A stretch of DNA of 64,000 bases from the NCBI GenBank assembly GCA_963810935.1, contig CAWEPK010000001.1:1-64000 (forward strand). The letters are read 5' to 3'. Below the pieces are notes generated by a model that ran no database searches, was not told where the DNA came from, and worked only from the letters and a program-made list of their open reading frames with translations. Every line of letters begins with the position of its first letter. Position 1 is the stretch's first letter. Source of the stretch: an uncultured delta proteobacterium. Lineage in GTDB: Bacteria > Desulfobacterota > Syntrophorhabdia > Syntrophorhabdales > WCHB1-27. Positions 1-46,964 of the stretch are shown in pieces. The position numbers and the translations under genes are program-made.

Positions 1-1895
1 GCTTCTTCGGTAAGGGGCGGCGGAACGGGGACGCCCGATATCTTGGTCACCGCGCGGAACTTGGGAGGACAGACTTCAAAGCACGTTCCACATTTCGTGC
101 ACTTTTCCTGATCTACCATATGGATGAGGTTCTTCCCCCCTATAATCGCTTCCGAGGGGCATTTCCTGGCGCAGGTGGTGCAGGCGTTGCACTTCGCGGG
201 GTCGATGTAGAAGTTGATAAGCTCCTTGCACGACAAGGCGGGGCAGCGCTTCTCTTTAACGTGCGCCTCGTACTCGTCCCTGAAGTATTTAAGCGTTGAG
301 AGGAAGGGGTTCGGGGAGCTTTTACCGAGCGCGCAGAGGGCCGCCTCTATGGCAGTCTCGGAGAGCGCCTCGAGGGTCTCTACGTCGCCTTCCTTGCCTT
401 TGCCCTTGGTGATATTGGTAAGCAGCTTGAGCATCTGCCTCATGCCCTCACGGCAGGGTACGCACTTGCCGCACGACTCGTCGGTGAGGAACTCCATGAA
501 GTACCTGGCGACGTCGACCATGCAGGTATCTTCATCCATGACGATCATGCCGCCGGAGCCCATCATCGAGCCTGCTTTGGTCATCTCGTCGAAGCCGACT
601 GGCAGGTCAAGGGCGTCTTCAGGCAGGCAGCCGCCCGAAGGCCCGCCCGTCTGTACTGCCTTGAACTTCTTGCCGTTCGGTATGCCGCCGCCTATGTCGT
701 AAATGATCTCCTTCAGAGGAGTGCCCATAGGCACTTCCACGAGACCCGTATTCGTTATCTTGCCGACAAGGGAGAATATCTTGGTGCCCTTGCTCGTCTC
801 CGTGCCGTATTGCGTGAACCAGTCGGCGCCGTTGTTGATGATAAGCGGGACGTTGGCCCACGTCTCGACGTTGTTGAGGACGGACGGTTTGCTCCAGAGG
901 CCGACGATATTGGACCGGATATACTTGGGCCTGGGCTCTCCCGCCCTGCCTTCGATGGCGGTCATCAGGGCGGTCGATTCGCCGCAAACAAAGGCGCCTG
1001 CGCCCCTGTGTACCTTGACGACGAAGTCGAAGCCGGAACCCAGGATGTTCTTGCCCTGGAGGCCCATTTCTTCCGCCGTCTTTATGGCCATGTTGACGTT
1101 TTCGACAGCGAGGGGATATTCCTGGCGGACGTATATGTAGCCCTCGTGGGCGCCTATCGCATAAGCCCCCAGGGTCAGGCCCTCAAGCACCGCATGCGGG
1201 TTGCCTTCGAGCAAGCTCCTGTCCATGTAGGCGCCGGGGTCGCCCTCATCCGCGTTGACGATCACGTATTTCACAGGGTCTTTCGCGTTGCGGGAGCCTT
1301 CCCATTTGACGCCTGCCGGGAAGCCGCCGCCTCCACGACCCCGGAGGTTGGCCTTCTTGACTTCCTGGAGCACGTCGTCGGGGCTCATGGCGCCCAGGGC
1401 CTTGGCCAGGGCGGCGTATCCGCCTATGGCCAGGTAGTCGTCGACGTTCTTCGGGTCAACGCTGACGTTCGCGCCGAAGACGATGCGCCCCTGGTTCTTG
1501 TAGAAAGGTATCTCCGACTCGTGGATGATCTTTTCTTTGGTGACCGGGTCGTTGTAGACCAGGCGGTCTATGACCTTCTTGCCCACTATCGTCTCGGAGA
1601 TGATCTCAGGCACGTCCTCCGGCTTGATCTGGAAGTAGCATATCTCGTCGGGCCGGATGACGATGATGGGGCCTCTCTCGCAGAAGCCGTGGCAGCCTGT
1701 CTTCCTTATATCGACCGTGGAAGAAAGGCCCTGCTTTGCCACCTCTTCTTCGAGCTTGATCGCCACTTCCCGGCTGCCCGAGGCATGGCAGGCAGAACCC
1801 GAGCAGAGGGTGATGACCGTCTTCTTCGGGTCTCTCTGCGAGATGATATCTTTTCTGAGTGCTTCGAGGTCGGCGGGTGAGTTTATCCGCGGCAT
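1..1895 (-). CDS. NuoF/HydB-like NAD(P)H-binding flavoprotein subunit (BamH-like); 3' end runs off the window
   Basis: Manual translation from ATG at 1895: MPRINSPADLEALRKDIISQRDPKKTVITLCSGSACHASG..., LRGRGGGGFPAGVKW, NADEGDPGAYMDR, ESCGKCVPCREG, C-terminal 2x[4Fe-4S] (CTKCGTCFEVCP). Absent from the ORF track because it is partial. Confidence 0.92.
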   Translation of the reverse strand, partial: MPRINSPADLEALRKDIISQRDPKKTVITLCSGSACHASGSREVAIKLEEEVAKQGLSSTVDIRKTGCHGFCERGPIIVIRPDEICYFQIKPEDVPEIISETIVGKKVIDRLVYNDPVTKEKIIHESEIPFYKNQGRIVFGANVSVDPKNVDDYLAIGGYAALAKALGAMSPDDVLQEVKKANLRGRGGGGFPAGVKWEGSRNAKDPVKYVIVNADEGDPGAYMDRSLLEGNPHAVLEGLTLGAYAIGAHEGYIYVRQEYPLAVENVNMAIKTAEEMGLQGKNILGSGFDFVVKVHRGAGAFVCGESTALMTAIEGRAGEPRPKYIRSNIVGLWSKPSVLNNVETWANVPLIINNGADWFTQYGTETSKGTKIFSLVGKITNTGLVEVPMGTPLKEIIYDIGGGIPNGKKFKAVQTGGPSGGCLPEDALDLPVGFDEMTKAGSMMGSGGMIVMDEDTCMVDVARYFMEFLTDESCGKCVPCREGMRQMLKLLTNITKGKGKEGDVETLEALSETAIEAALCALGKSSPNPFLSTLKYFRDEYEAHVKEKRCPALSCKELINFYIDPAKCNACTTCARKCPSEAIIGGKNLIHMVDQEKCTKCGTCFEVCPPKFRAVTKISGVPVPPPLTEE

Positions 1896-1905
1896 GATTT
1901 TTTCC

Positions 1906-2358
1906 TCAATCGTAGTTTTTCAGTACGTCGGCCGTCTGGACAGGGGACATCTTGCCGTGTGTCTTCCCGTCGATCTCCATGACGGGACCCAAGGCGCAGC
2001 AGCCCAGGCAGTTGACGATCTCCAGGCTGAATTTCAGCTCCAGGTCCGTCTCGCCGGGCTTGATGCCCGTTATCTCCTCCACCGTGTCGAGGACGCGTGA
2101 CGCCCCTCGGACGTGGCAGGCCGTGCCCATGCAGATGTGGACCTGGTGGCGGCCCTTCGGCACTAGGCTGAATGCCTTGTAGAAGGTGGCGATATGCTGG
2201 ATGCGCGTCATGGGGACCTGGAGTTTTTCTGCTACTCTGCCCAAGGCCTCCCTGGGCAGCCAGCTATTCTCCGCCTGGATGTCTAAAAGCACCTGGATGA
2301 GATAGCTCGCATCGCCGTGATACTTGTCGATGATCTGGTCGATTCTCTCATTGTCCAT
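1906..2358 (-). CDS. NuoE/HydC-like [2Fe-2S] subunit (BamG-like)
   Basis: ATFYKAF, CMGTACHVRG and NCLGCCALGP motifs. Confidence 0.93.
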   Translation of the reverse strand: MDNERIDQIIDKYHGDASYLIQVLLDIQAENSWLPREALGRVAEKLQVPMTRIQHIATFYKAFSLVPKGRHQVHICMGTACHVRGASRVLDTVEEITGIKPGETDLELKFSLEIVNCLGCCALGPVMEIDGKTHGKMSPVQTADVLKNYD

Positions 2359-2412
2359 AGGATATGTCCCGGTCCTTACTTTTTTTGCTCTCTGCTCAAG
2401 GCACAGTCCGCC

Positions 2413-3198
2413 TTAAGCGACGGCGTAACGCTTCTCGCTTTCGTCGTACCTGACGAGCCTCTGGCGCGACGAGCTGTTCAGGTACTTCGACACCTCCGAC
2501 GGGGTAAGGCCCAGGGCCTTAGCTATCTCGGCTGTGGACAGCGGCTTCTCCCGCAAAAGGGCGATGATCTGCGTGACAGCGAGCTTGTCGAAAATTGTTT
2601 CCTTAAATATCCTGTTCACTTCGTCGCTGTTGAAAAACTTGTCGTAGCGCTCTTCCTGCTCTCCCGATACCCGCAAGGAGAGGGGCGGTCTCAGCCTTTC
2701 CGTTTGTACCAGCTTGATGTACGGGATAAGCTTTCTGACTGATTCAAGCCTGAACTTTAATGCATCTTTGTCAATTCCTTCGCTTTTGCCCAGCGGGCCC
2801 AGCTCCTCAACTTGCCTGCCGAAATCGTTCATGATATTGGCAAACCGGATTCCTTCACCAGCGGAAACCCATTCAAGCCTTAACCGGTCCGGGTTCACCC
2901 CTATATGCCCCAGTAATTTCCTGGCTATGGTTACCACGCTCAGCGCATCGTAATTTCCGTTGGTAATATAATGGCAGTCGTCAAGATGGCAGCCGCCGAC
3001 AAACATCGCGTCCTGCCCGGTCGAAAAGGCGAGCAGTATGTGGGCCAGATCGACCCTGGCCGAGCACATCACCCTTATAAGCCTTATATAGGGAGGGTAT
3101 TGAAAACGGGAGACGCCGCAAAGGTCCGCCCCTCCGTAGCAGCACCAGTTGCATATAATGCCTAATATCCTTGGTTTAGACCTGGATCCCGTACTCAT
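2413..3198 (-). CDS. MvhD/FlpD-like [2Fe-2S] subunit with C-terminal winged HTH (BamF-like), Cys form
   Basis: CNWCCYGGADLCG, IRVMCSARVD, GCHLDDCHY, RLRLEWVSAGEG; C-terminal LSTAEIAKALGLTPSEVSKYL. Confidence 0.9.
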   Translation of the reverse strand: MSTGSRSKPRILGIICNWCCYGGADLCGVSRFQYPPYIRLIRVMCSARVDLAHILLAFSTGQDAMFVGGCHLDDCHYITNGNYDALSVVTIARKLLGHIGVNPDRLRLEWVSAGEGIRFANIMNDFGRQVEELGPLGKSEGIDKDALKFRLESVRKLIPYIKLVQTERLRPPLSLRVSGEQEERYDKFFNSDEVNRIFKETIFDKLAVTQIIALLREKPLSTAEIAKALGLTPSEVSKYLNSSSRQRLVRYDESEKRYAVA

Positions 3199-3256: not shown

Positions 3257-6200
3257 CTACGATTCTCCAACGGCCGCATCAATCTGTTGAGCGGTTTCTT
3301 CCTGCGGCGCCGCAGCAATGATCTGGCTGAACAGCTCTTCATCGGTATAGTGCTTCAATGAGATAGCCCCTGTCGGGCATTTCGGATTGCAGAGACCGTC
3401 CCCCTTGCAGAGGACAGGAGTGACCCTGGCCTTCCTGCCTTGCGGCGACTCACAAAACTCTATAGCGCCGTAGGTGCATGCGCTAATGCATGCCCCGCAG
3501 GAAATGCACTTGTCCTCATCGACCGCGCACACGGAGCCGGAGGCGACGACCGTATCGTTTGCGAGGAGGGTCAAGGCCCGGCCCGCTGCGCCGTAGGCCT
3601 GGCTGACCGTTTCAGGTATAAGCTTGGGATAGTGGGCTATCCCGCAGAGGTAAATGCCTTCCGCCCCGAAGTCGACCGGTCTCAATTTTACATGGGCCTC
3701 CTGGAAGAACTCGTCAGGGCCCAGGGTGACCTTGAATAACCCGGAGATTTGTTTTCTGTCCGCGGAAGGGACCACGGCCGCGGCCAGGGCGACGATATCG
3801 GCATCCAATTCGAGCTTCTTCCCCAGAACATAATCGGTCACGGTCACTTTCAGGACCGGCCGGCCGTCTTCCGACTCGCCGGGCGCCACCTGGGGCGCCT
3901 CTTCCGGCTCGTAGCGAATGAACCTGACGCCCCTGTTTGCCGCTTCCCGGTAATAATCCTCTTTGAAGCCGTATGTCCTCATGTCCCTGTAGAGCACGTA
4001 AATGTCCATATTCGGGTTGATCTCTTTCAGCTTTAGGGCGTTCTTTATCGACTCGCTGCAGCATATCCTGCTGCAATAGTTCCTCTCTTCGTTCCTGCAC
4101 CCGACGCACTGGATCATCACGAGGCTCTGCGCAGCCGTGACCTTCTCGTCGCCCGCGAAGATCTTCTCCTCAAGCTCCAGGTGCGTCATGACCCTTTCGT
4201 CCTGCCCATAGAGGTATTCGGTGGGCTTGTATACCTCGGCGCCGGTCGCGATGACGGCGGCGCCGTGTTTTATCGCGGTGACTCCCCTGTCGGATTTCAC
4301 CGTGGTGACGAAATTACCAACGTAACCGGCGGCGCTGGTGATGGCAGCTTCCATATAAACATGTATCAGGGGGTGGTGATAAACCTTCTTGATGAGGTCG
4401 TTCAGATACGCCTGAACGTCCAGCCCCTCCAGGGTGTAGTGCACTTTTCGCGCGATTCCCCCGAGGTCTTTCCCCTTCTCCACCAGGTACACCTCATGTC
4501 CCTGGTTGGCTATGGAAAGAGCCGATGTCATGCCTGCTATGCCTCCACCGACCACGAGCGCTCTCTTGTCAACGGGCAAGTCGAACTCCTGGAGCGGCTC
4601 CAGCCGGCACGCCCGCGCCACCGCCATCCGGATGATGTCCTGCGCCTTTTCGGTGGCCTCTTCCTTTTCCTTCGAGTGGACCCAGGAGCAATGCTCCCTG
4701 ATATTCGCCATATCGTAGTAGTATTGGTTGATCCCCGCTTCCCGGAGGGTGTCCCGGAACAGGGGCTCGTGCGTCCTCGGAGTGCAGGCGGCGACGACCA
4801 CGCGATTGAGCCCCCTTTCCTTAATATCTTTTGAGAGCATCGCGGCTGCTTCGGTAGAACATATGAAGAGGCTTTCCTCGGCGTGAACGACATTCGGTAG
4901 CGTCAGGGCGTAGTTAACCGTGGAGGGAACGTTGACGATCCTTCCGATATTGGCCCCGCAATGACAGACATAGACGCCTACCCTGGGCTCGTCCCGAGAG
5001 ACATCTCTTTCCGCCGGATATACCCTTTCTTTCGAAAGGTTCCCCCTCCTGTAATCGAGCAGCTCGCCGCATTGAGCGCCGGCCCCGCATCCGGTCACCA
5101 CCGATTCGGGGATATCGAGAGGACCCTGGAAGGCGCCGCTTATAAAAACTCCCGGACGAGACGTCTCCATGGGATTGAAGGGATTGACCTTGCAGAATCC
5201 GTGAGCGTTAAGCTCTACGCCGAACCTCTTTGCGAGGTCCTTGAAATCGCGGGGAGGGTTCAACCCGACAGATAGCACGACCATGTCGAATTCTTCTTCT
5301 TTCACGCCATCGTCCGTGGTCGAGTACCTGACAGTAACGTTTTTCGTCTCCGGGTCCTCTTTCACTATCGACGTGTAGCTCCTGATAAACCGGATCCCCG
5401 GAAGTTTTTCCGCCCGCTGGTAGAATCGCTCGAAATCCTTGCCGTAGGAACGGATGTCGTTATGGAATATGGTGCACGCGGCCTCAGAGTCATGGTCTTT
5501 CGTTAAAATTACCTGTTTCTGCGTATAGGTGCAGCAGACAGCCGAGCAATAGCTGTTGCCGCCCTCCAGGACCTGTCTCGATCCGACGCAGTGGAGCCAT
5601 GCTATGTTGTGGGGATGCCTTTTGTCGGAAGCGCGCAGTATCTCGCCTTCGTAAGGACCGGTGGCGCAGAGCAGTCTTTCGTAGTCCATACTGGTTACCA
5701 CGTTCCGGAACTCTCCGTAACGATATTCCGCCCTTGTCCTGGGATCGAAGGGCTCGAAGCCGGGCGCCAGGATTATGCCGCCTACTTTTACCTCTACCTT
5801 CTCACCCGTCTGGTTAAAGTCTATGGCGTTGTTCTTACACACCCCTTCGCATAGACGACATTTTTTCTCTTTGAGGTAAAGACAGCTTTCGTCTATATAA
5901 GGCTTCAGGGGAATGGCCTGGGGGAAGTATATGTGTATGGCTTTGTTCTTCGATATATCCTGATTGAATCGATCGGGGTACTTGACCGGGCAGTACTCCG
6001 CGCAGCTCGTACAACCCGTGCATTTCTCCGCATGAATGTACCTGGGCTTTTTAATCAGCGTTACCTTGAAGTTCCCCGCTTCGCCTTCTATGCTGTCGAC
6101 CTCTGTATAGGTCATGATTTCTATGTTGGAATGCCGGTTGCATTCAACGAACTTTGGGGATTCGATGCACATGGAGCAGTCGTTCGTGGGAAAGGTCTTA

Positions 6201-6397
6201 TCGAGCTGGGCCATGTGGCCGCCGATGGTCGGCGCAGCATCGACCAGATAGACTTTGAAGCCCGCCGTGCCCAGGTCGAGGGATGCCTGTATGCCGCTGA
6301 TGCCGCCGCCGACGACCATTACATCCCCGAAGTTATCGCCTCCAAGGTTCCTGCAAAGTCGCTGGATATTGTCTTTAAGCTGTATTACGTTCTCCAT
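3257..6397 (-). CDS. hdrA: Large HdrA-like flavoprotein with two FAD domains (BamE-like)
   Basis: Two GGGxxG FAD motifs, LDKTFPTNDCSMC, CVGSR...YCSAVCC, CHCGANI, ANIREHCSWVH, ferredoxin motifs. Confidence 0.92.
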   Translation of the reverse strand: MENVIQLKDNIQRLCRNLGGDNFGDVMVVGGGISGIQASLDLGTAGFKVYLVDAAPTIGGHMAQLDKTFPTNDCSMCIESPKFVECNRHSNIEIMTYTEVDSIEGEAGNFKVTLIKKPRYIHAEKCTGCTSCAEYCPVKYPDRFNQDISKNKAIHIYFPQAIPLKPYIDESCLYLKEKKCRLCEGVCKNNAIDFNQTGEKVEVKVGGIILAPGFEPFDPRTRAEYRYGEFRNVVTSMDYERLLCATGPYEGEILRASDKRHPHNIAWLHCVGSRQVLEGGNSYCSAVCCTYTQKQVILTKDHDSEAACTIFHNDIRSYGKDFERFYQRAEKLPGIRFIRSYTSIVKEDPETKNVTVRYSTTDDGVKEEEFDMVVLSVGLNPPRDFKDLAKRFGVELNAHGFCKVNPFNPMETSRPGVFISGAFQGPLDIPESVVTGCGAGAQCGELLDYRRGNLSKERVYPAERDVSRDEPRVGVYVCHCGANIGRIVNVPSTVNYALTLPNVVHAEESLFICSTEAAAMLSKDIKERGLNRVVVAACTPRTHEPLFRDTLREAGINQYYYDMANIREHCSWVHSKEKEEATEKAQDIIRMAVARACRLEPLQEFDLPVDKRALVVGGGIAGMTSALSIANQGHEVYLVEKGKDLGGIARKVHYTLEGLDVQAYLNDLIKKVYHHPLIHVYMEAAITSAAGYVGNFVTTVKSDRGVTAIKHGAAVIATGAEVYKPTEYLYGQDERVMTHLELEEKIFAGDEKVTAAQSLVMIQCVGCRNEERNYCSRICCSESIKNALKLKEINPNMDIYVLYRDMRTYGFKEDYYREAANRGVRFIRYEPEEAPQVAPGESEDGRPVLKVTVTDYVLGKKLELDADIVALAAAVVPSADRKQISGLFKVTLGPDEFFQEAHVKLRPVDFGAEGIYLCGIAHYPKLIPETVSQAYGAAGRALTLLANDTVVASGSVCAVDEDKCISCGACISACTYGAIEFCESPQGRKARVTPVLCKGDGLCNPKCPTGAISLKHYTDEELFSQIIAAAPQEETAQQIDAAVGES

Positions 6398-6554
6398 TTT
6401 CCTTCACCTCATCAGATTCCTTGTGCCCCGTGCGGTTTCTCGCGCCCGTGGAAGCGCGCTACATTGCCGCAACGATCCGCTCCCTACTTCAAAAGGACAA
6501 ACGAGGCCACAGCCGATGATTTATTTTTAGGGAAGGAAAAAGGCGGGGGAAAAG

Positions 6555-6689
6555 TCAGGGCGAGGCGGGTGCTGTGCGAGAGACCGACCCCCTTTCTCTC
6601 TCCTTCCGTCGAACCTGAAGACCCAACCTAGGTCTTCCGCGGCCGGATTTGACCGCTCATATAAGAGAAAAGGGCGCCAAACGGTGCAT
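6555..6689 (-). CDS. Putative leader peptide (uORF) MHRLAPFSLI-UGA; 44 aa if UGA at 6659-6657 is read as Sec
   Basis: SD AAGGAGGTGA at 6703-6694, ATG at 6689, in-frame TGA at 6659-6657, next in-frame stop TGA at 6557-6555. Confidence 0.6.
6617..6656 (-). promoter_or_regulatory. SECIS-like structure 3' of the uORF UGA
   Basis: Hairpin GCGGUC-AAAUCC-GGCCGC (6656-6639), then hairpin GAAGACCU-AGGUU-GGGUCUUC (6637-6617) with apical AGGU resembling the E. coli fdhF SECIS loop. Confidence 0.55.
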
Positions 6690-6730
6690 TATGTCACCTC
6701 CTTTACCTTGAGAAAATAAGCACATGCTCT

Positions 6731-6759
6731 ATCCTAAATCAAATATTTTAATAAGTCAA
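6731..6759 (-). promoter_or_regulatory. sigma70-type promoter for the hdrA operon leader
   Basis: TTGACT (6759-6754), 17-nt spacer, TAGGAT (6736-6731) in an AT-rich patch. Confidence 0.65.
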
Positions 6760-6834
6760 AGGAAAAGCTGCGGGGCAAAAGGAAGTGCAAAAAACAGACG
6801 GTATCGGTCGTATCGGGACTAATGAGAATATTCG

Positions 6835-7737
6835 TTACGCGCTCTTCCCCCTGGTGCGCACCAGCTCCGACAACAGCCTGTCCGCTATCGTCCGGCCTTC
6901 GGCACGGTCGCCCTGCATCGCGTCCCTGAACAGTATGGTCCCGTCTTCTTCTGCGTAAACGGCGCGCACCACGACCCGGTTTCCTGAAAGCTGAGCGTTG
7001 ACGCCAAGGGGCACGCTGCACCCTCCACCGATGCCCAGGAGCAGCCTCCGCTCCAGGCCCACCTCGAACGCGGTCGCGTCGTGGTCGAGGGGACGCACCA
7101 GCTCCTCGGCCTCGGTTGCCGACCTCGCCTCTATGCCTATGGCCCCCTGGCCGCAGGGCGGCACCATGACATCGAGGGAGATGGCTTCTTTGATGCTCTC
7201 CCGGAGGCCCATCCGCATTACGCCCGCGCAAGCGAGAATAACGGCGTCGAGGTCGCCGGCTTCGAGCTTCCTTACCCGCGTGTCAACGTTGCCCCTTAGC
7301 GGGACGACTTCGATGTCCGGCCTCAGCGCAGCGATCTGCGCCTTGCGGCGCATACTGCTCGTGCCTATCCTGGCTCCCTGCCGCACGCCGAGAAGGGTAT
7401 CGTATTTCAGTGAGATAAAGGCGTCTCTCGGGTCTTCCCTCTTGAGTACGGCGCTCAAGCACAGCCCGTCGGAAAGCTCGGTCGGAAGGTCCTTGACGCT
7501 GTGGACCGCCAGGTCTATCCCGCCGGCCACAAGCTCTTCCTCAATCTCCTTTATGAAGAGGCCTTTGCTGCCGATCAGGTAGAGGGGCGTGTCCCAGATG
7601 GAATCACCCGTTGTTTTAATGACCTTGATAGTGAACTCCATCTCAGGGTAAAGGCGTGAAAGGCCGTCCCGGACGATATCCGTCTGGATCAGGGCGAGCT
7701 TACTTCCCCTCGTCCCTATTATCCACTTCTTTTTCAT
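6835..7737 (-). CDS. hemC: Hydroxymethylbilane synthase (porphobilinogen deaminase)
   Basis: IGTRGSKLALIQ, KGLFIKEIE, AVHSVKDLP, GTSSMRRKAQ, RGNVDTR. Confidence 0.97.
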   Translation of the reverse strand: MKKKWIIGTRGSKLALIQTDIVRDGLSRLYPEMEFTIKVIKTTGDSIWDTPLYLIGSKGLFIKEIEEELVAGGIDLAVHSVKDLPTELSDGLCLSAVLKREDPRDAFISLKYDTLLGVRQGARIGTSSMRRKAQIAALRPDIEVVPLRGNVDTRVRKLEAGDLDAVILACAGVMRMGLRESIKEAISLDVMVPPCGQGAIGIEARSATEAEELVRPLDHDATAFEVGLERRLLLGIGGGCSVPLGVNAQLSGNRVVVRAVYAEEDGTILFRDAMQGDRAEGRTIADRLLSELVRTRGKSA

Positions 7738-46883: not shown

Positions 46884-46964
46884 TATACTGCTCATGCCAA
46901 ACCATCTGCGAAGGTGGGACGGAAAGCCAAGGGTCTTCTACAAGACAGCCTGGTTGCCAGTTAT
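46884..46964 (+). ncRNA. Cyclic di-GMP-I (GEMM-I) riboswitch
   Basis: GCCAAACCATCT-GCGA-AGGTGGGACGGAAAGCC-AAGGGTCT..AGACAGCCTGGTTGCC matches the GEMM consensus; P1 ACUG/CAGU; position-20 equivalent (46896) is G. Confidence 0.88.

Follow-up and report, generated by a model that had tools for sequence, protein, structure and literature searches.

Between hemC and a four-gene operon for HdrA-like, MvhD-domain, NuoE-like and NuoF-like proteins, the minus strand of the window (the whole 64,000-nt stretch of DNA analysed here) carries a 440-nt leader that is best explained, from comparative sequence and folding evidence, as a translation-attenuating sensor of selenocysteine (Sec). We put the probability of this reading at roughly two in three. 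That the leader senses Sec, whatever its output, appears very likely from its sequence features and, judged by its homologues, the leader is a real, conserved element.

Leader layout and the Cys/Sec operon pair

From the promoter to the last gene of the operon, the following features were placed:

6731..6759, minus strand: predicted sigma-70-type promoter, TTGACT-17-TAGGAT, 9/12 consensus matches
6694..6703, minus strand: uORF Shine-Dalgarno (SD) sequence AAGGAGGTGA, with GGTGA invariant in a 7-sequence alignment
6657..6689, minus strand: uORF MHRLAPFSLI, codons 6689-6660, with UGA, the proposed sensor codon, at 6659-6657
6663..6674, minus strand: pyrimidine tract U within the uORF, alternative partner of purine tract P
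6639..6656, minus strand: hairpin 1, directly after the UGA, an optional 12-nt spacer module
6617..6637, minus strand: hairpin 2, SECIS-type, with its loop GGU at 6628-6626
6555..6656, minus strand: read-through extension of 33 codons, ending at TGA 6557-6555
6588..6607, minus strand: purine tract P, inside the read-through frame, predicted by folding to be an anti-anti-SD
6530..6549, minus strand: pyrimidine tract Y, predicted by folding to be the anti-SD of hdrA; its composition is also rut-like
6409..6519, minus strand: spacer, predicted to fold closed on itself and so put Y beside the hdrA start
6392..6408, minus strand: hdrA ribosome-binding site (RBS) and start codon (ATG 6397-6395), the target of Y
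3257..6397, minus strand: HdrA-like flavoprotein, Cys form; Cys77 is TGA in the paralogue on contig C12, 76% identical
2413..3198, minus strand: MvhD/FlpD-domain protein, Cys form; Cys19 is TGA in the C12 paralogue, 65% identical
1906..2358, minus strand: NuoE-like subunit
3..1895, minus strand: NuoF-like subunit, cut by the contig end

The original prediction had set out the promoter, SD, uORF, two hairpins, tracts and second stop of this leader, and its coordinates all hold on the minus strand; the apical loop that it gave as AGGU folds as GGU closed by an A-U pair. Promoter-like sites number 2 in 6390-6840 compared with 0.4 in shuffles, and a comparable promoter lies upstream in 33/69 homologous leaders having enough flank. 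Taken alone, the window sequence is weak evidence for a leader element. The folding z-score of this single leader is -1.9, and a loose genome-wide scan for SD, uORF, stop and hairpin found no TGA enrichment (TGA 47/763, TAA 32/544, TAG 36/628) and is therefore not counted as evidence.

The window operon represents the Cys member of a pair, since a paralogous operon on contig C12 of the same genome (G000, to which contig coordinates refer unless another genome is named) carries TGA at both HdrA Cys77 and MvhD Cys19, with a G-loop hairpin after each. This comparison establishes the Cys/Sec paralogue pair, and HdrA and MvhD are both listed as selenoprotein families in the accessible part of PMC13188914. 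The nuoE/nuoF DNA of the Cys and Sec operons is 99.3% identical (window 1-2590; C12:604-3193, C8:1-1279), a repeat that interrupts the assembly, at three contig ends. Such near-identity, compared with 76% for the HdrA proteins, suggests that duplication or gene conversion occurred recently. Among close hdrA copies in the family, 17 are of the Sec form; a further two are close Cys forms (85-87%).

The Sec machinery that the original prediction presupposed was found in large part: selA, selC (tRNA-Sec, three matches), both Sec-form and Cys-form selD and the Sec-form paralogous operon are present, together with rho; selB is frameshifted in the assembly. Compared with G001 and G002, the selB gene (C5:224260-226186, plus strand) differs by three single-base indels; each of the three congeners has it whole, and 18/21 family genomes have a match above cut-off. 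Its frameshifts are probably assembly or sequencing errors, since frame-breaking indels occur in 23/62 ORFs compared with G002; similarly, 12/91 orthologues of G003 proteins are split in this assembly (three being selB and its antisense frames), and AGCT is the context of 9 of the 41 indel events listed and of two selB indels. The three tRNA-Sec genes are near-identical (C4:30323-30418, C6:4921-5016 and C11:126660-126755), lie ≤4 kb from contig ends and may represent duplication, integration sites or assembly overlap. Two rhodanese-like frames (C5:54414 and C12:211480, both minus strand) have a TGA aligned to Cys plus a G-loop hairpin and are candidate selenoproteins; the self-comparison for selenoproteins gave mostly noise from non-coding frames, and only the HdrA, MvhD and rhodanese rows among the matches listed were used. 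Elsewhere in the window, a c-di-GMP-I-GGC riboswitch (RF03167) lies at 46887-46962 on the plus strand (62.6 bits).

Conservation of the leader and the genes that follow it

A second copy of the leader lies in the same genome at C8:19837-19723 (E 2e-17) and precedes genes for a corrinoid protein, two methyltransferase-like proteins and an ABC transporter. Searches with blastn gave matches in 8/61 related genomes (6 real). With covariance models, 18/96 genomes of the order and, in a later round, 21/96 gave a match, each time with one weak or false match; in a phylum sample the count was 7/151 genomes (one false). The selA gene is nearly universal in the order (91/96 genomes, compared with 21/96, one match false, for the leader family by model), so its co-occurrence with the leader tests nothing. 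Metagenomes were searched with a stop-blind pattern consisting of an SD, a gap of 41-71 nt and a hairpin, the stop codon being left unnamed to avoid selecting UGA. The following were dropped before counting: short blastn matches (L011, L012, L015), two duplicate loci, the second of a pair of identical copies in G020, weak matches to the model in G016 (degenerate) and in G222:C251, G112 and G052 (gene starts, false), and, as duplicates, 16 metagenome leaders and three genome leaders repeated among them. Because the homologues share ancestry, the counts below are not independent.

All 65 stop-blind metagenome matches (49 distinct) have a uORF that ends in UGA. For comparison, TGA ends 396/1045 long genes of this genome, and all three stop codons occur as the second stop among the 49 distinct leaders (TAA 21, TGA 18, TAG 9, one cut off). 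The hairpin is in frame with the UGA in 48 of the 49. The UGA is separated from the stem by 21 nt in 45 leaders and by 9 nt in three; the remaining leader (L150) has 20 nt, which puts its hairpin out of frame and gives a stop after 10 codons, reflecting decay or a sequencing error. Across 71 distinct leaders, a stop ≤20 codons past the UGA is found in frame 0 in 2 and in each other frame in 68, the latter stops being partly due to the hairpin's own sequence (TAG triplets).

Hairpin 2 was aligned in 19 sequences fitted to the model, which are kin and thus not independent: 100% of cells are paired, compensatory changes occur in 5/8 pairs and the covariation beats 500/500 shuffles and all slid controls. 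Hairpin 1 is paired in 87% of cells, with compensatory changes in 3/6 pairs, and does not occur in the short variants with 9-nt spacing. The bSECIS consensus model, as given in the accessible part of PMC13188914, has a loop of 3-9 nt with G in its first two positions, a stem of 4-16 bp, a UGA-to-loop distance of 16-37 nt and an MFE ≤ -7.5 kcal/mol. Hairpin 2 of the window agrees with this model (3-nt loop, GGU; 9-bp stem; 28 nt; -10.5 kcal/mol), and 69/71 homologues pass on all four counts, both failures arising from a wrongly placed cut of the sequence examined. The UGA-to-loop distance in the leader also resembles that of Sec genes in the same genome. Homologous leaders thus keep UGA rather than UAA or UAG, a conserved SD and a covarying hairpin, as had been anticipated, and their comparison establishes the uORF, its invariant UGA and the in-frame SECIS-type hairpin. 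Rfam 15 has no family at the leader at gathering score, the best E-values (3.6-7.9) belonging to unrelated families.

The genes that follow the leaders are linked to selenium. The first gene after the 71 leaders is yedE (30), double-cubane reductase (10) or its activase (1), TIGR01977 desulfurase (8), URO-D/MtaA-like (3), Mop-like oxidoreductase (2), CCG Fe-S protein (2), an unnamed family (2), Cys-form HdrA (2), rhodanese (1) or corrinoid protein (1), with 9 lacking an assignment, five of these cut by contig ends; only 2/71 leaders directly head hdrA. A yedE representative scores above the cut-off for TIGR04112 seleno_YedE, and the best named relative of the TIGR01977 desulfurase is the Sec lyase SclA, below cut-off. 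No stop was found within aligned stretches of the downstream genes. According to the accessible part of PMC11097638, selenium starvation of M. maripaludis induces yedE and URO-D-annotated SdmABC-like genes, and the gene content after the leaders establishes a selenium regulon. In G035 (L074:2067-5088) the leader heads yedE-yedF-selA and may there control Sec synthesis itself too. In two metagenome contigs (L099:460-969 and L137:691-1200) it is followed by a 170-residue protein with a Tat-like N-terminus, for which no Pfam or NCBIfam match was found at the thresholds used.

The original prediction had proposed comparing the leaders of orthologous Cys-form hdrA-mvhD operons. The leader model gave no match at any of the 29 further hdrA loci that were tested, including 17 Sec-form ones. 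Upstream of the Cys orthologue in G008, across a decayed double-cubane gene, lies a uORF-UGA-hairpin arrangement of unrelated sequence, whose homologue in the window's genome is at C8:21866-22021 (E 1e-11); at C8:21845-22021 (plus strand), a leader comprising uORF MKIYGIIFVPLS-UGA and a hairpin precedes a double-cubane reductase gene. The G011 orthologue adjoins Cys-form selD and mvhD, and its contig ends upstream. At C8:19991-20037 (plus strand), a uORF MFKICA-UGA with a G-loop hairpin stands before Cys-form selD and mvhD; leaders of this type are a further sequence family, found before Cys-form selD in G000, G002 and G008. Leaders of unrelated sequence thus stand before the same targets, which indicates that UGA leaders converge.

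Predicted RNA switch and competing readings

We folded leaders with their 5' part removed, to represent a ribosome that stands at the UGA or covers P. The energy needed to open the downstream RBS was then calculated for 46/71 leaders, each with a clear downstream start chosen by eye. For the control comparison, 40 of these (start within 300 nt) were set against 120 of 282 ordinary 5' regions under the same truncation. With P covered, the predicted RBS opening energy goes up in 41/46 leaders and down in 2, and the median rise is +4.75 kcal/mol in the 40 leaders compared with -0.13 in the 120 controls. In the window, opening of the hdrA RBS is predicted to go from 6.4 to 15.6 kcal/mol with P covered (+9.2; control maximum +6.9) and from 6.4 to 16.4 kcal/mol when P is removed in silico, and such deletion mimics read-through in 35/40 leaders. 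Spacers shuffled with composition kept still raise the opening energy (median +1.67 kcal/mol; more than +2 in 19/40), so the effect is partly compositional; the shuffled value lies below the real one in 33/40.

When a ribosome sits on the UGA, P is predicted to pair with 6549-6531 at a probability of about 0.7, a pairing (6607-6588 with 6549-6531) that had been proposed and is present in the MFE fold. When P is covered, 6545-6530 is predicted to pair with 6408-6392, which holds the hdrA SD and start codon (core probability 0.85-1.0), and this pairing accounts for the rise in RBS energy in the window. These folding results point to P as an anti-anti-SD and Y as an anti-SD. The second partner proposed for P, tract U (6607-6588 with 6674-6663), gains support as a third state (12 bp, -19.2 kcal/mol): the U:P duplex is stronger than its own shuffles in 61/65 homologues (median -19.4 compared with -14.5 kcal/mol). 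The preference for CCY at the uORF Pro codon (59/61, compared with 53% genome-wide) speaks for the same pairing. P:Y is stronger than U:P in 64/65 in folds without ribosomes, so U would be able to trap P only after a ribosome has passed, and the OFF state would need ongoing read-through or kinetic trapping.

The mechanism that best fits these predictions is as follows. Ribosomes would load on the strong uORF SD and arrive at the UGA after 10 codons. If Sec-tRNA is scarce, they would pause or terminate there and leave P uncrossed; uncovered P would hold Y, the hdrA RBS would stay open and the Cys-form HdrA-MvhD-NuoEF backup would be made. Stalling at the UGA is not required, since ribosomes that repeatedly terminate at this codon would also leave the switch ON. 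If Sec-tRNA is available, SelB on hairpin 2 would recode the UGA and the ribosome would translate 33 further codons across P, breaking P:Y, after which U could capture P; freed Y would pair with the hdrA SD and start codon and turn translation off, and Rho may afterwards end the untranslated transcript. Within this scheme the P/Y/RBS switch is predicted by folding, and we infer translation of the uORF, Sec insertion, a selenium response and a Rho step, if there is one. Both sensor and polarity (ON without Sec-tRNA, OFF upon read-through), as given in the original prediction, are strongly supported computationally, given the invariant UGA, the in-frame and covarying hairpin, the selenium regulon, the Sec-form paralogue and the presence of selA, selC and selD.

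The original prediction had assigned a different output to the same Sec sensor, namely that read-through frees Y as a rut site and Rho-dependent termination follows. Several features are compatible with such transcription attenuation: rho is present, no intrinsic terminator competes (none in 6390-6840 and 0/46 homologues by a heuristic search), the segment 6556-6526 is C-rich and G-poor (13 C, 12 U, 4 A, 2 G) and the second stop is followed by 140-250 nt of untranslated RNA. On the other hand, folding predicts that Y, once freed, pairs with the hdrA RBS rather than staying single-stranded, and that it is paired in both states; RBS occlusion exceeds composition-matched shuffles in 33/40 leaders, and the RNA downstream of Y is folded and G-rich. 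We therefore regard Rho-dependent termination as possible but unlikely to be the main output, and the pairing of Y with the hdrA RBS and start codon once P is covered points to translational attenuation.

It is improbable that SelB-GTP-Sec-tRNA bound to hairpin 2 regulates directly, with read-through incidental. Hairpin 2 is the best-conserved structure of the leader and the E. coli selAB leader offers a precedent (10.64898/2026.03.03.709296, accessible part), but the distance from hairpin 2 to the hdrA RBS is about 210 nt (6617 to 6408), compared with 3 nt in E. coli, and direct SelB control leaves unexplained the invariant in-frame UGA, the spacing steps of three and the open frame across P. 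An operator of the E. coli selAB type was rejected for the window on the same geometry, as hairpin 2 ends at 6617 and does not abut the RBS beginning at 6408.

The uORF might also be kept for its product, an 11-residue peptide or 44-residue selenopeptide, or for sensing something other than selenium, with the UGA an ordinary or leaky stop. Among 67 distinct segments, Pro stands at -5 from the UGA in 61 and Ser at -3 in 66, the latter encoded by all four TCN codons; Phe/Leu before the UGA is also highly conserved, and P-R-L-G-L is conserved past it. However, P-R-L-G-L results from reading the hairpin sequence in frame, the remaining extension (10-51 codons) is unconserved, the Pro codon is CCY in 59/61 compared with 53% genome-wide, which is an RNA-level constraint, Phe/Leu is absent from the short variants and the genes after the leaders are selenium-linked, so that we hold a product-based role to be very improbable. 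A chance arrangement of an intergenic region, with which the loose scan and the folding z-score would agree, is contradicted by the second copy in the genome and by 71 distinct homologues of fixed geometry, and its likelihood is negligible.

Known systems and significance

The preferred reading, a translation-attenuating Sec sensor, belongs with leader-ORF attenuators in having a short uORF with a conserved sensing codon and, in silico only, an RBS switch (41/46). No run of one sense codon was found in the uORFs; what is conserved as the sensing position is one UGA, accompanied by a SECIS-type hairpin. Attenuators of the trpL/hisL type use tandem sense codons and an intrinsic terminator, and in tnaC free tryptophan is sensed when the peptide arrests at a stop, with no read-through, E. 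coli tna being attenuated in a Rho-dependent manner. The window leader resembles tnaC in that events take place at the UGA of a leader ORF, with a C-rich tract downstream and rho present in the genome; it differs in that read-through itself is the proposed signal. With trpL/hisL-type leaders it shares mutually exclusive pairings and a leader ORF in which the amino acid to be sensed has a codon (accessible parts of PMC3847290 and 10.1101/834739), and differs in its single stop/sense codon, rather than tandem sense codons, and in having no intrinsic terminator. A trp-type transcription attenuator was rejected on this last ground for the window and 46 homologues.

As described in the accessible part of 10.1101/834739, mycobacterial polycysteine sORF attenuators likewise combine a short ORF, RBS sequestration governed by ribosome position and a sensor common to many operons. 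They stall ribosomes in a run of sense codons, whereas the window leader would use one UGA with SelB and a SECIS; its uORF also has its own SD, and its ON state would be reached by not passing a stop. The leader is not a member of this class because its sensor is a recoded stop. In ermCL and cat leaders, the position of a ribosome on the leader ORF likewise frees or hides a downstream SD, but these sense antibiotics by nascent-peptide arrest with no recoding, by the account in the same accessible text (10.1101/834739), and recoding is what we propose here. The E. coli selAB 5' UTR similarly has a SelB-type hairpin that reports Sec-tRNA supply and lowers translation; there a gap of 3 nt separates hairpin and SD, repression comes from SelB binding itself, and the accessible part of 10.64898/2026.03.03.709296 describes no uORF or UGA. 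In M. maripaludis the physiology is the same, with Cys backups, yedE and methyl-selenide methyltransferases rising on selenium starvation, but HrsM is an archaeal LysR repressor acting on DNA whose sensed signal is unknown according to the accessible part of PMC11097638, unlike the RNA leader proposed here, which would be read by the ribosome. Within the open full-text literature searched, which included passages of PMC11955535, PMC8124441 and PMC3847290, no description of a UGA/SECIS leader sensor was found. The original prediction likewise did not recognise it as a described element.

We consider it quite probable that Desulfobacterota possess a selenium-starvation regulon that operates without a protein regulator, in which at least three unrelated leader families sense stop-or-Sec at one UGA and act through an anti-SD output to control selenium uptake and Cys backups. 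How selenium is sensed and Sec enzymes are swapped for Cys enzymes is unknown even in the best-studied model, by the accessible account in PMC11097638, and the leader offers a complete, directly testable bacterial answer. As a marker of selenium-starvation genes, it makes the double-cubane reductase, rhodanese and methyltransferase-ABC operons candidates for selenium scavenging, and the switch could be used as a genetic reporter of Sec insertion. If the proposed mechanism is true, leader-peptide attenuation would extend to the 21st amino acid, with genetic recoding itself as the signal.
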